64,000 nt of DNA from Candidatus Kapaibacterium sp. (lineage in GTDB: Bacteria > Bacteroidota > Ignavibacteria > Kapaibacteriales > UBA2268): NCBI GenBank assembly GCA_963664875.1, contig OY761611.1, positions 416,001 to 480,000 of the forward strand. The letters run 5' to 3'. The notes under the pieces are model-generated. The model was not told the origin of the DNA. It saw nothing but the letters and a program-made list of their open reading frames with translations, and did not search any database. The position numbers and the translations under genes are program-made. Below are positions 57,933-64,000 of this stretch, piece by piece. The stretch's first letter is position 1. Every line of letters starts with the position of its first letter.

Positions 57933-58577
57933 ATGCTAAGTCAAGCCGTACAAGATTATCTGAAGACAATATACAAGTTACAGGAAACGGGGCCTGTATC
58001 AACTACAAAGATTGCAAAAGAATTGAATATATCAGGTGCCTCCGTGACAGGAATGCTAAAACGATTAGCTTCTATGGGAATGGTAGATTATAATTCGTAC
58101 AAAGGTGTCAAACTAACATCTAACGGAGAAAAAATTGCTTTAGAGATTCTAAGGCATCACAGATTGTTAGAGCTTTATCTGAAAGAAATGCTTGGATTCT
58201 CTTTAGAAAAAGTCCACGACGAGGCATGCCGTTTAGAGCATCATATTTCACCTGAGTTTCTCGAAAAAATTGATGATTTACTTGGCAATCCACAATTTGA
58301 CCCACATGGGCATCCAATTCCTCAGCGAGATGGCAATCTTCCAAGTTTGCAAGAAAATGTCCTTCTAGAAATAGATCCCGGTAGAACAGTTACTATATCT
58401 CGTTTAGCCGATAACGATCCGGAAATGCTAGCCTATTTTGAAACGCAGGGGCTTGTTCCTTCAGTAGTGATTCAGGTAATGGAGAAAGCTCCATTCAACG
58501 GACCAATTACTATTAAATTGAACGGTCAAAATAAAATATTAGGCAACGAGGTTGCTAGAAATATATATGTGAAATAG
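57933..58577 (+). CDS. DtxR/MntR-family metal-dependent repressor with C-terminal FeoA domain
   Basis: QDYLKTIY, SVTGMLKRL, RHHRLLELYL, HDEACRLEH, DPHGHPIP. Confidence 0.92.
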   Translation: MLSQAVQDYLKTIYKLQETGPVSTTKIAKELNISGASVTGMLKRLASMGMVDYNSYKGVKLTSNGEKIALEILRHHRLLELYLKEMLGFSLEKVHDEACRLEHHISPEFLEKIDDLLGNPQFDPHGHPIPQRDGNLPSLQENVLLEIDPGRTVTISRLADNDPEMLAYFETQGLVPSVVIQVMEKAPFNGPITIKLNGQNKILGNEVARNIYVK

Positions 58578-61199: not shown

Positions 61200-62675
61200 T
61201 TATCTTTTCAACATATTTTTCATCTCATTGATTTCATTTCTTGTATAAAAACCTAAAATCTTTAGAAGCAAGACATGAGAACACAACAAAACAATTTTGG
61301 AGACTATTTGAGTTATGCCAGTAAAAGTATTGGAAAGAATATAATCAGCAATAAAAATGGAAAGCGTTGATATAAGTATTTTCAATACCCTGCCCCACTC
61401 ATACTCTACTTCGTAAATTTTCTTCTGGAATTTATAGAGGATGGCAGCACTTATCAGATAAGCAAACAATGTGTTGTATGCAGCTGCTATATAACCAAAA
61501 ACAGGAATAAATACGATATTAGAAATAATATTAAAGATAGCTGCCGTACCTACTGCCATAGGTAGATATTTTGTATTTTTAGTAATATAAAACGCAGATG
61601 TGATATTAGTAAAAACACCGTTAAAATAATAAGCAGCCAAAATAATGGGCACTATTCCCAATGCCTCCCAATATTCACTGTTTATCAAAGTTCTTGATTC
61701 TGTGATAGGTATTTTTACGATTAAGTCAACAAAAAGAGTAATAAACAAAAACAACACCGATGCAAGTAATGTAAAATAGGTAAAAACTCTTGCAAACATT
61801 TCCTTAGCATTGCCTTCTTTTCTATTATTTAGATAAAATGGTTTCCATGCGTATTCAAACATTGAAACGAAAAGCATCATGGGGATTCCCAATTTATAAT
61901 TTATCGAATAAATACCTGCCTGATGTGAGCCCTCTGAGCCACCTATAAGGAATTTCATCAAAGGCTGGTCTGATATTTGAAGAACAATTGCTGATAAACT
62001 TGCGGGTATTGTCGGCAAACCAAATATTATCATTTCTTTATACAATTGAACATCGAAAATTAGCAACCTATTGTTGTAAAGCTGTTTACCAAGGACGATT
62101 GCTCCTATGACAGAGGAAATAAATTGAGCTTGCAACGCACCTGCCGGACCTAATTTTAGGACGATTACAAAATACAATGACAATGCAACTGCAATAACGA
62201 TTATTGAAAACCTCGTTATTGTAAACTGTTTTGCTTTATCGGTAAGTCTTAGAAATGCATATGGAATCAGCATCAATGAGTCAAGGAAGGGTATCCAAGC
62301 AGCATATCTAATCATGGGCAAACCGTAGGGCTCTCTCGTAAAAAGAAGAGCAAGCTCTTTAGAAAATAAAAACAAAACGAGCGACAAAATAAATGAAGTA
62401 ATAGCTATACTTAAGTAAGATGTAGAAAACACCCTCCTACTTCTGTTGCAATCATCTTTATCCCAAAATCTAAAAAAAGCAGATTCCATCCCAAATGTAG
62501 CAAATATTCCCATAAATGCAACAATTGCAAGGACAGATGCCAAATCTCCCATTTCACTTGTAGATAAATCTTCAGTATAAAAAAGAGTCAGAATAAAAGT
62601 TAAAAATCTGCCGGCAATCATCATCAAGCCATATACAAGGGTATCTTTGCTCAATGATTTGAGTTTATCTTTCAT
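61200..62675 (-). CDS. Polysaccharide/oligosaccharide flippase (Wzx-like, MOP superfamily)
   Basis: Polytopic membrane protein; DTLVYG, GMESAFFRF, FGLPTIP, AWKPFYL; TAttTTTG promoter motif at 62751-62758. Confidence 0.85.
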   Translation of the reverse strand: MKDKLKSLSKDTLVYGLMMIAGRFLTFILTLFYTEDLSTSEMGDLASVLAIVAFMGIFATFGMESAFFRFWDKDDCNRSRRVFSTSYLSIAITSFILSLVLFLFSKELALLFTREPYGLPMIRYAAWIPFLDSLMLIPYAFLRLTDKAKQFTITRFSIIVIAVALSLYFVIVLKLGPAGALQAQFISSVIGAIVLGKQLYNNRLLIFDVQLYKEMIIFGLPTIPASLSAIVLQISDQPLMKFLIGGSEGSHQAGIYSINYKLGIPMMLFVSMFEYAWKPFYLNNRKEGNAKEMFARVFTYFTLLASVLFLFITLFVDLIVKIPITESRTLINSEYWEALGIVPIILAAYYFNGVFTNITSAFYITKNTKYLPMAVGTAAIFNIISNIVFIPVFGYIAAAYNTLFAYLISAAILYKFQKKIYEVEYEWGRVLKILISTLSIFIADYILSNTFTGITQIVSKIVLLCSHVLLLKILGFYTRNEINEMKNMLKR

Positions 62676-62820
62676 TTTTTATGCTACATATTGGTTACAG
62701 AATACATTTTTGTTTTTATTTATGAACAATACTTCTTATTTTAAGGCGTGCAAAAATATTTAAGAGGTATCTTAAAACGATAAGTACTATTTTACTTTTA
62801 AAATAACCATCAATGAAACA

Positions 62821-63183
62821 ATGAAACAAATATTTAACATACTGTTTTCGATAATACTATTCGTCGCAACTTTGCTCTCGATGCATAATGAAGCTGTGAA
62901 TGGACATTATCATGTTTCAGAAGATGGAATTACATATTATCATGTGCATCCTTACGATCATCACGAAAATAGTGATTCTCCATTAAAAGACCATACACAT
63001 TCTAAAGTTGAATCAGTTATATATCTAAGCTATACACACCCTCTTTTTATTCTAAGTAGCATTTTTTGCTTCATAGTATATAGCTTATATAGGAAAATTG
63101 ATTTTAAATCTTCAAAAATCTTTGCTTTTTCACTGCAAGAATCCTTCGACAGTAGTGAGTTACGTGCTCCACCGGCTTTGTAA
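62821..63183 (+). CDS. His-rich membrane-targeted leader protein ending in RAPP arrest motif (putative cis-acting regulator)
   Basis: N-terminal hydrophobic segment; HYH/HVH/HH/HTH cluster; second hydrophobic segment; C-terminal LRAPPAL*. Confidence 0.7.
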   Translation: MKQIFNILFSIILFVATLLSMHNEAVNGHYHVSEDGITYYHVHPYDHHENSDSPLKDHTHSKVESVIYLSYTHPLFILSSIFCFIVYSLYRKIDFKSSKIFAFSLQESFDSSELRAPPAL

Positions 63184-63213
63184 AACAAATCTATTAATGC
63201 CTCTAATTCTTTT

Positions 63214-63242
63214 CCAATAAATACAGCCTATTGTATTATTGG
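63214..63242 (+). promoter_or_regulatory. Intercistronic hairpin between leader and downstream gene
   Basis: CCAATAAATACA-GCCTAT-TGTATTATTGG, 11 bp with one bulge. Confidence 0.45.
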
Positions 63243-63293
63243 TTCATATTAGCACATACACTATAATTTTTATACTTAATAATGGGGATTACT

Positions 63294-64000
63294 ATGAAAT
63301 TAGTAAACTTTTTACTTATTACATTTATGATTTCTGCCAACTTACTACATGCAGAAACGGAAGAAGTTACAATAACTACTGGTGTAAGCTACCAAAATAC
63401 CGTTTGGTACTCATTGACAGGAGGAGTAGTCAAAGAAGCACCAAAAGATAACTGGGATTTAGCTTTCCAGACAGGACAAAACGGTGCAATTCATCTCAAC
63501 TGCCAAAAAGGCTATGAACTTTTTGAAATAGTAGATTCTGACGAGTTTTCTTGGGATGCTACTATAGATACTACTGACTTCAGAAACTCAAAGAATTTTG
63601 TTTCTTGGCTCAACTCGGAAGGATCTTGGAATGTTGGCGCATTTAATACCGGGAAAAACGGATTTGAGGACAATGGAGAATTCGGTTGGGGTGCTTATGA
63701 TTTGTCAGATCATGGGATAAAAGGCAATAAACTATTTATGCTTATAACACCCGATAAACAAGTAAAAAAGATATTTATATCTAAATTATTGAACAGGAAA
63801 TATGACTTCAAATATGCTGATTTAGACGGATCAAATGAAGTATATGCTACTGTTAATAAAAATGACCGACCTGATGTATCATTTATCTACTTCGACTTTG
63901 CAACTAATGCAATACTTACAGAAGCTAGAGAACCTAATAGTTCTGACTGGGATTTGGTTTTTGGAAAATACACAATAGCTTACCCAACAGGTGAAGGAAC
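63294..64000 (+). CDS. Secreted HmuY-like (tandem domain) putative heme/metal-binding protein, 3'-truncated; not in ORF track
   Basis: GGGGA RBS; own translation MKLVNFLLITFMISANLLHA-ETEEV...VWYSL...DNWDLAF...FGWGAY...FIYFDF...REPNSSDWDLVFGKY; open to window end. Confidence 0.7.
   Translation, partial: MKLVNFLLITFMISANLLHAETEEVTITTGVSYQNTVWYSLTGGVVKEAPKDNWDLAFQTGQNGAIHLNCQKGYELFEIVDSDEFSWDATIDTTDFRNSKNFVSWLNSEGSWNVGAFNTGKNGFEDNGEFGWGAYDLSDHGIKGNKLFMLITPDKQVKKIFISKLLNRKYDFKYADLDGSNEVYATVNKNDRPDVSFIYFDFATNAILTEAREPNSSDWDLVFGKYTIAYPTGEG

Follow-up and report, generated by a model that had tools for sequence, protein, structure and literature searches.

A histidine-rich small open reading frame ending in RAPP ahead of a TonB-dependent receptor operon in Candidatus Kapaibacterium: a candidate metal-sensing arrest leader

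The described system that most resembles the locus studied here is CruR (Bp2923) of Bordetella pertussis, an upstream open reading frame (uORF) on which the ribosome stalls at an Arg-Ala-Pro-Pro (RAPP) motif. According to the work on CruR, this stall keeps Rho from terminating in the 162-nt spacer, copper at a CxxC motif relieves the stall, and the spacing between CxxC and RAPP is fixed at 45 residues, with altered spacing impairing control (PMC9426467). In vitro, CruR was reported to be arrested with the P and A sites occupied by two Pro codons; RAPP and RGPP were the most versatile arrest cores, and RSPP was partly permissive (PMC12992588). We analyzed a stretch of 64,000 nt from Candidatus Kapaibacterium sp. 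(Bacteroidota; assembly GCA_963664875.1, contig OY761611.1, positions 416,001 to 480,000), which is called the window and supplies all coordinates below unless a genome or another locus is named. Near its end lies a 120-aa open reading frame (ORF) on the plus strand (62821-63183), termed the leader, which carries a His-rich module and a C-terminal RAPP and precedes an operon encoding an HmuY-like protein, a TonB-dependent receptor and a second HmuY-like protein. We consider it probable that the leader is a uORF regulating this operon, its most likely nature being that of a ligand-sensing ribosome-arrest peptide; our confidence in any particular ligand or in a Rho step is lower than in the arrest-leader mechanism as a whole. 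The basis for this reading is the anatomy of the leader, the conservation of its His residues and RxPP core, the fixed spacing between them and the gene neighborhood, and from here we infer stalling, topology, ligand, direction of response and the Rho step.

Comparison with known arrest leaders

Like CruR, the leader is a small exported or membrane-targeted uORF that stands first in a TonB-dependent-receptor operon, has RAPP two to three residues from its stop codon, keeps a fixed distance between ligand motif and RAPP, and is followed by a spacer of about 100-160 nt. In contrast to CruR, its sensor consists of three HxH motifs instead of CxxC, an extra membrane helix lies between the sensor and the arrest core, the spacing is about 58 residues rather than 45, and its host belongs to the Bacteroidota and not to the Proteobacteria. 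An earlier reading of the window, made from the letters and their ORFs without database searches (the sequence-only reading), had already described the leader as lacking CxxC. We confirmed this; the leader contains a single Cys (C83, in the second helix) and the family consensus contains none. The DUF2946 model (PF11162) likewise did not match the leader at E<=10; its only match in the own genome (E 6.19) was elsewhere, and there was no Pfam hit to it among the 106 aligned family members.

CutF of Rhodobacter capsulatus, a DUF2946 protein, is reported to work in another way, copper inducing a stall that melts a stem-loop over the next ribosome-binding site (bioRxiv 10.1101/2025.02.05.636593). 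Its ligands are Cys residues, it controls a detoxifying oxidase and not an uptake receptor, and its stem-loop hiding the ribosome-binding site has no predicted counterpart at the leader locus. SecM, MifM, ApdA and ApdP share with the leader an R-A-(G/P)-P core near the C-terminus, an N-terminal localization signal and a release that is thought to depend on force, but their targets are components of Sec or YidC, and no metal-ligand module is conserved in them. By analogy, the leader is most likely best read as a metal-sensing arrest peptide of the CruR/CutF kind with a sensor unrelated to DUF2946.

The kind of system is already known, because small RAPP/RGPP ORFs upstream of TonB-dependent receptors have been reported as a class. 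The main text of that study, which is confined to counts and distributions, states that they are enriched there, nearly all with a signal sequence, and 'universally' in Gram-negative bacteria (PMC12992588, EMBO J 2025). The leader has the features of this class: fewer than 300 aa, RAPP near the C-terminus, a localization signal (judged by hydropathy and the structural model) and a co-oriented upstream position. The novelty that the sequence-only reading had attached to a RAPP leader before a TonB-type uptake gene was therefore overrated. In the texts consulted, among them PMC9426467, PMC12992588, PMC12914433 and the CutF preprint, we found no description of the His-type family, its six invariant or nearly invariant His residues, the helix between sensor and arrest core or the 58-residue ruler; the supplements of PMC12992588 may list members.

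The named family nearest to the leader is DUF6769 (PF20558), a Bacteroidota family with no assigned function. All three members that were fetched (loci L044, L045 and L046) were small, with an N-terminal helix and His/Cys clusters, and all three ended in GLRAPP plus two to four residues and preceded a His-rich lipoprotein gene. From these features, DUF6769 appears to comprise RAPP arrest leaders of metal-efflux genes. Its profile and that of the leader family align over the last 15 columns only, which is the arrest module, and the genes downstream of DUF6769 serve efflux and not uptake. None of the 106 aligned His-family members scored above the DUF6769 cut-off of 27 bits, and one of the 106 matched at E 0.0038.

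Anatomy and conservation of the leader family

The leader runs from an ATG at 62821 to a TAA at 63181-63183, as found in the ORF list and supported by the family search. A first hydrophobic helix, a signal anchor or signal peptide by hydropathy and the AlphaFold2 model, covers aa 4-21 (62830-62883, plus strand) and reaches a peak hydropathy of 2.46 (Kyte-Doolittle, 17-residue window). It is followed by the His module, aa 22-60 (62884-63000, plus strand), with HxH at 29/31, HxHP at 41/43/44 and HxH at 58/60, which alignment and model predict to lie on the periplasmic side. The nine His residues of the leader are at positions 22, 29, 31, 41, 43, 47, 48, 58 and 60. A second hydrophobic helix at about aa 64-90 (63010-63090, plus strand; peak hydropathy 1.96), found by hydropathy and in the model, is followed by the basic residues R91 and K92. 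The predicted arrest core, R115-A-P-P118, is encoded by CGT GCT CCA CCG (63163-63174, plus strand), a prediction made from its conservation and by analogy with ApdA, ApdP and CruR, and only Ala and Leu separate it from the stop codon. The sequence-only reading had reported the 120-aa ORF with its hydrophobic segment at aa 4-21 and nine His within aa 22-60, a second hydrophobic stretch, and RAPP codons two residues ahead of the stop; the sequence agrees on every one of these points, at the positions given.

The AlphaFold2 model computed on the family alignment had a mean pLDDT of 81 and consisted of a helix at residues 2-27 (pLDDT about 90), a β-hairpin at 28-32/38-42 with four of the His residues, a helix at 62-97 and an unstructured tail. 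Since K2 stands at the N-terminus and R91/K92 stand behind helix 2, the likely topology is N-terminus inside, His loop outside and C-terminus inside.

In public gene calls, four of the five closest homologs begin at internal Met21. Met1 is the likelier start, as judged from sequence conservation, because the hydrophobic segment upstream of Met21 is kept in 135/144 family proteins and in all three close loci. The leader start lies within a direct duplication, ATGAAACA ATGAAACA (62813-62829), and the first ATG of the duplication opens a three-codon mini-ORF (M-K-Q-stop) that overlaps the leader start codon.

A word-indexed search revealed five close homologs, all with the His pattern and all ending in LRAPP or LRGPP plus two to six unrelated residues. 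Running phmmer exhaustively against 1.84 billion cluster representatives then gave 259 proteins at E<=0.001, 150 of them listed. The C-terminal counts below refer to 154 proteins, spacing and hydropathy to the 144 of 150 that fitted both motif patterns, and conservation of the flanks to 150; the alignment comprised the leader and 105 listed relatives of typical length (121-127 aa in the family), with clearly truncated or extended ones left out. No Pfam or NCBIfam model matched the leader, and the family has no named model. Its members are called at most 'hypothetical protein' in the sources, and none of the 30 nearest ESM Atlas clusters, most of which come from Bacteroidota, bears a name. Judged by these sequences, the leader is a member of a large unnamed Bacteroidota family and not a chance ORF.

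In the alignment of 106 sequences, H29, H31, H41, H43, H60, P117 and P118 were invariant, and N23, G36, P44, H58 and R115 were kept in at least 90%. The conserved His residues thus define the putative sensor as three HxH motifs. An xxPP motif was present within the last 30 residues of 149/154 proteins, as RAPP (86), RGPP (41, plus one RGPPP), RSPP (9), HAPP (4), KSPP (3), KAPP (3), RPPP (1) and LSPP (1). R[AG]PP therefore occurred in this region in 127 of 154 proteins (128 with the RGPPP). Of the five proteins without xxPP there, three had a truncated or divergent C-terminus, one was a repeat protein unrelated to the family and one carried RAPP further from its end. The tail behind PP was mostly two to three residues long and showed no conservation, and the 16 positions ahead of the Arg were likewise unconserved except for a Leu at -1 (62/150). 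A two-module layout has been described for RAPP arrest peptides (PMC12992588), and the unconserved flanks of the arrest core match this design.

Although the sequence between the last His and PP was unconserved, its length was fixed. Counted from the last His, the second Pro was 55-59 residues away in 141/144 proteins (58 in 69, 55 in 26, 57 in 25, 59 in 15 and 56 in 6). Hydropathy of at least 1.6 was reached by the first segment in 135 and by the second in 136 of the 144 proteins, and the second hydrophobic window ended a median of 28 residues ahead of the second Pro (interquartile range 26-31). Two checks that the sequence-only reading had asked of the homologs, conservation of the terminal R(A/G)PP and conservation of the His positions and spacing, were thus both passed.

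A motif census of the own genome (3.83 Mb, 36% G+C) revealed no RAPP or RGPP in 2164 ORFs of at least 200 aa (1,036,199 residues), where the 22 other orderings of the same letters occurred 52 times in total. Six-frame translation gave 26 R[AG]PP, and the three in the longest open frames belonged to three small leaders with the motif two to four residues from the stop. Exactly three small ORFs of the genome ended in R[AG]PP, namely the leader, a paralog before a receptor gene and a Cys/His ORF before an RND operon. A fourth frame with RGPP (genome G000, position 412635; 81 codons) was dismissed, having no hydrophobic segment and no plausible partner gene.

The paralog (G000 813861; G000:C1:813831-814190, locus L022 2001-2360) ends in RAPP plus three residues, with HSHF in place of HxHP, and a gene for a 797-aa TonB-dependent receptor with a CQNCG plug motif lies 121 nt downstream. 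There is no ATG, GTG or TTG upstream of its hydrophobic segment. The third of these small ORFs is a Cys/His-rich ORF of 132 aa (G000:C1:2344212-2344610, locus L041 1492-1890) that ends in RGPP plus four residues and scored 21.7-23 bits against DUF6769, under the 27-bit cut-off. Downstream of it are genes for a His-rich lipoprotein (441 aa), a 1030-aa RND pump and a 393-aa outer-membrane factor. Because of its RGPP end and its position ahead of this lipoprotein/RND operon, the 132-aa ORF is likely an arrest leader of a metal-efflux operon.

Gene neighborhood and the operon

To place the leader in its genomic context, we ran the family profile against 401 genomes sampled across the phylum and obtained matches in 17 genomes, which represent 16 of the 180 genera; the own genome contained a second copy. 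Gene neighborhoods were compared for the own locus and for 16 others with 10 kb around each; L019, a weak match with internal stops, was left out. A TonB-dependent receptor was found in the operon at 16 of the 17 loci. At 15 of 17, an ORF of 735-801 aa began within 162 nt of the leader end, with gaps of 41-162 nt in 14 and an overlap in L024. Pfam Plug and barrel domains were present in 16 of 18 downstream ORFs tested, and the other two were pump genes. Seven of the 16 receptor genes had no further co-oriented gene within 350 nt. The tightly linked genes that follow the receptor elsewhere encode thioredoxin-like proteins (two loci), a globin, a TPR protein, a peptidase or proteins with no Pfam match; we tried to read a ligand from this context, and none of them points to one metal. 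At L023 and L033, the thioredoxin-like reading frame (154 and 157 aa, respectively) begins before the receptor gene has ended, with 4 and 1 nt in common; such an overlap suggests that the receptor subtype of these two loci is coupled to a redox step.

At the own locus, the leader is separated from the next gene by a spacer of 110 nt (63184-63293, plus strand), in which alignment with three close loci showed a GGGG/GGAG Shine-Dalgarno-like element 8 nt ahead of the next ATG. That gene (63294-64000 and past the window end, plus strand) starts with the ATG at 63294, is co-oriented with the leader and encodes a secreted HmuY-like protein of 426 aa in full, with a signal-peptide-like N-terminus and a T9SS C-terminal domain according to Pfam. 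The sequence-only reading had called an HmuY-like gene 110 nt past the leader stop, and this was borne out: against Pfam HmuY (PF14064, cut-off 27 bits) the part inside the window scored 29.6 bits and the full 426 aa 40.7 bits. The complete gene order is leader, 426-aa HmuY-like protein, 732-aa TonB-dependent receptor (Plug and barrel), 333-aa HmuY-like protein and dtd; the 333-aa protein has a lipoprotein-like N-terminus and scored 59.6 bits against the HmuY family.

This order, from the leader through HmuY-like, receptor and HmuY-like genes to dtd, was kept in 3/3 close relatives. In the own locus the HmuY-like gene precedes the receptor gene, whereas a receptor-sized ORF directly follows the leader at 15/17 loci, so the link to HmuY is a feature of the own subclade. 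The synteny that the sequence-only reading had proposed to look for thus held for the TonB-dependent receptor and, for the HmuY-like gene, only within this subclade.

Upstream of the leader, a divergent polysaccharide-flippase-like gene starts at 62675 on the minus strand. In the interval between this gene and the leader, alignment of the own locus with L037-L039 revealed a conserved non-coding block (62685-62750, no strand assigned) that was nearly invariant in the four loci, above the flanking coding DNA (57-77% protein identity). The block is probably a shared promoter or operator, although no known box was recognized in it, and such a near-invariant stretch of 65 nt suggests added transcriptional control. 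The exact Bacteroidota -7 motif TAnnTTTG did not occur on the plus strand between 62650 and 63300, which does not prove the absence of a promoter. An inverted repeat (62725-62745 / 62771-62791, 76% complementary) was rejected, as its second arm was not conserved in L038 and L039. Within the spacer we found no intrinsic terminator, and promoter-like matches numbered 5 against 5.6 expected, which again does not prove absence. The only contig from an RNA library, a metatranscriptome contig of 213 nt, covered 63274-63486 with five differences and showed neither a transcript start nor co-transcription; DNA contigs of near relatives showed no change in 63000-63290. Farther upstream, 4 kb from the leader and on the same strand, a DtxR/MntR-type metal-dependent repressor with a C-terminal FeoA domain is encoded at 57933-58577.

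Proposed mechanism and rival explanations

In the mechanism we propose, helix 1 would direct the growing chain to the inner membrane, and the module of three HxH motifs would cross to the periplasmic side. The ribosome would then stall at R115-A-P-P118, its P site occupied by Pro117 and its A site by Pro118, a placement taken from the arrest sites reported in PMC12992588. During the stall, helix 2 would be at the tunnel exit, and the last His, about 58 residues from the peptidyl-transferase centre, would be near the outer mouth of the translocon, at about the outer face of the inner membrane. Occupancy of the His module by a ligand, most likely a divalent transition metal, may alter the pulling force and with it the length of the stall. 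By analogy with CruR, scarcity of the ligand would cause a long stall that keeps Rho off the RNA, so that the uptake operon is made, and plentiful ligand would release the stall and shut the operon down.

The CruR-like Rho-dependent route is preferred by exclusion and by analogy. Rho is encoded in the own genome (682 bits), and C exceeded G in the last 90 nt of 18/18 leaders. Unmasking of the start site, as in SecM or CutF, was dropped for the own locus after blocking of a ribosome footprint in the folding calculation had no consistent effect. We also rejected a duplex between CUCC of the Pro codons and the GGAG-like element; it was seen by eye in three of the four close loci but not in L039, involved four to five pairs and was not supported by folding. 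Rfam gave no match at E<=1 (L002 1-6000), and hence no match to a cobalamin riboswitch.

Several of our results weigh against the leader being an arrest peptide that senses metal and controls uptake. At L029, the leader is followed by genes for a CusB-like membrane-fusion protein and an AcrB-type pump with no receptor, and control of an efflux pump would call for a reversed logic. Among the 16 other loci, three carry RPPP, KSPP or RASP; the one with RASP, the L024 leader (2001-2471), has a frame that continues for 30 more codons into the receptor gene and may be a decayed leader. The only recurrent match among the 106 aligned members was to a His-rich HypB prefix model (39/106, best E 2.5e-6), which may reflect composition alone; we did not take it as a relationship and treated it as compositional only. 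We looked for His-rich loops in the own receptor and in both HmuY-like proteins and found none, and the own receptor is nearest to BtuB, a point that bears on the ligand. At the RNA level, the RNAalifold consensus of the four close loci reached -6.4 kcal/mol, but its covariation term was positive and no structure was supported, and the single-sequence fold had z = -1.0. When a stalled ribosome was placed at the Pro codons in partition-function folding, the accessibility of the start region changed by -0.004 at the own locus, and the same test across 18 loci gave a median of 0.002 with values above 0.1 in 5/18. Finally, the excess of C over G in the own leader is weak, 18 to 16, and codons for Pro, Ala and Arg impose part of this bias.

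A first alternative is that the leader encodes a stable small inner-membrane protein that partners the receptor, for example as a periplasmic metal-binding or hand-over subunit, with RxPP serving as a cytoplasmic structural or interaction motif or as an insertion pause. The two well-predicted helices and the compact His hairpin (pLDDT 80-90) fit such a protein, as do the fixed partnership with receptors and a His module conserved beyond the need for mere stall release. However, a binding motif would not be expected to sit between unconserved residues, as RxPP does with the tail behind PP and the stretch ahead of Arg, and RAPP and RGPP are the strongest known arrest cores, avoided elsewhere in the own genome. 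The leader is moreover always first in its operon, 41-162 nt ahead of the next gene, and its His-PP distance is fixed while the sequence between is free. We hold it to be unlikely that the leader is a stable protein of this kind and not a switch, and the two roles, stable protein and arrest leader, are compatible with each other.

The second alternative concerns the ligand of the own subclade, which could be a tetrapyrrole (heme or corrinoid) bound by His instead of a free metal ion. The receptor is flanked by two HmuY-family proteins, among solved structures it is closest to BtuB chains (E about 3e-21), and its best NCBIfam matches are B12 and heme receptor models, all far below their cut-offs. 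With BtuB nearest and no CxNCG plug motif, the own receptor differs in subtype from most of the others. Yet the same six His occur across the other receptor subtypes, in which CxNCG is found at 9/16 receptors and identity to the own receptor is only 13-23%. The HmuY-like proteins themselves have 3 and 2 His, these being counts only, and the Rfam result above argues in the same direction. We give little credence to a tetrapyrrole as the sensed ligand.

According to a third alternative, the leader is an arrest peptide that monitors membrane insertion through Sec or YidC, as SecM and MifM do, with its His residues serving another purpose and no metal being sensed. Membrane insertion at a helix-stall distance such as that of helix 2, which ends a median of 28 residues ahead of the stall site, can pull on a nascent chain, as force-profile studies have shown. 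According to PMC10987492, most of the RAPP peptides known so far monitor Sec or YidC. Against this, the genes downstream at the 17 loci were receptors or a metal pump and never sec or yidC, and the six His of the three HxH motifs, all invariant or nearly so, are what would be expected of a ligand site. We regard an insertion monitor as quite improbable. That the leader is a chance ORF or a misannotated 5' region without function, for which the lack of any database family or name might speak, is refuted by 259 homologous representatives, invariant residues, fixed spacing and conserved gene order, and it can be dismissed.

The metal-sensing arrest leader thus remains our preferred reading, and it can be extended into a fuller account that we put forward only tentatively, as doubtful when all its parts are taken together. 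Before the chain leaves the ribosome, the periplasmic six-His site would fold around a metal, and force would pass through helix 2, over the ruler of about 58 residues, to R[AG]PP. Periplasmic and not cytoplasmic metal would then set the expression of outer-membrane uptake genes, at transcription or translation, without a protein regulator. The sensor would have arisen independently of CruR and CutF, possibly for zinc, nickel or cobalt, and would have been re-used in the own subclade for HmuY/BtuB-like tetrapyrrole uptake.

To our knowledge, nascent-peptide control of metal uptake has been shown for copper only, and only with the Cys-based DUF2946 leaders of proteobacteria. Judged by its sequence, the His-type leader would be a second, unrelated and much-used sensor module, facing the periplasm between two membrane helices. 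If this is true, evolution has combined the RAPP arrest module with different ligand sensors on more than one occasion, and the principle extends to the Bacteroidota and probably to another metal. The leader would then also be a compact natural system, of about 120 codons, for the passage of a signal from outside the membrane to the catalytic centre of the ribosome. Since neither Pfam nor NCBIfam covers the family and gene calls often place its start 20 codons too far downstream, present annotations hide a likely regulator of many TonB-dependent receptor operons.

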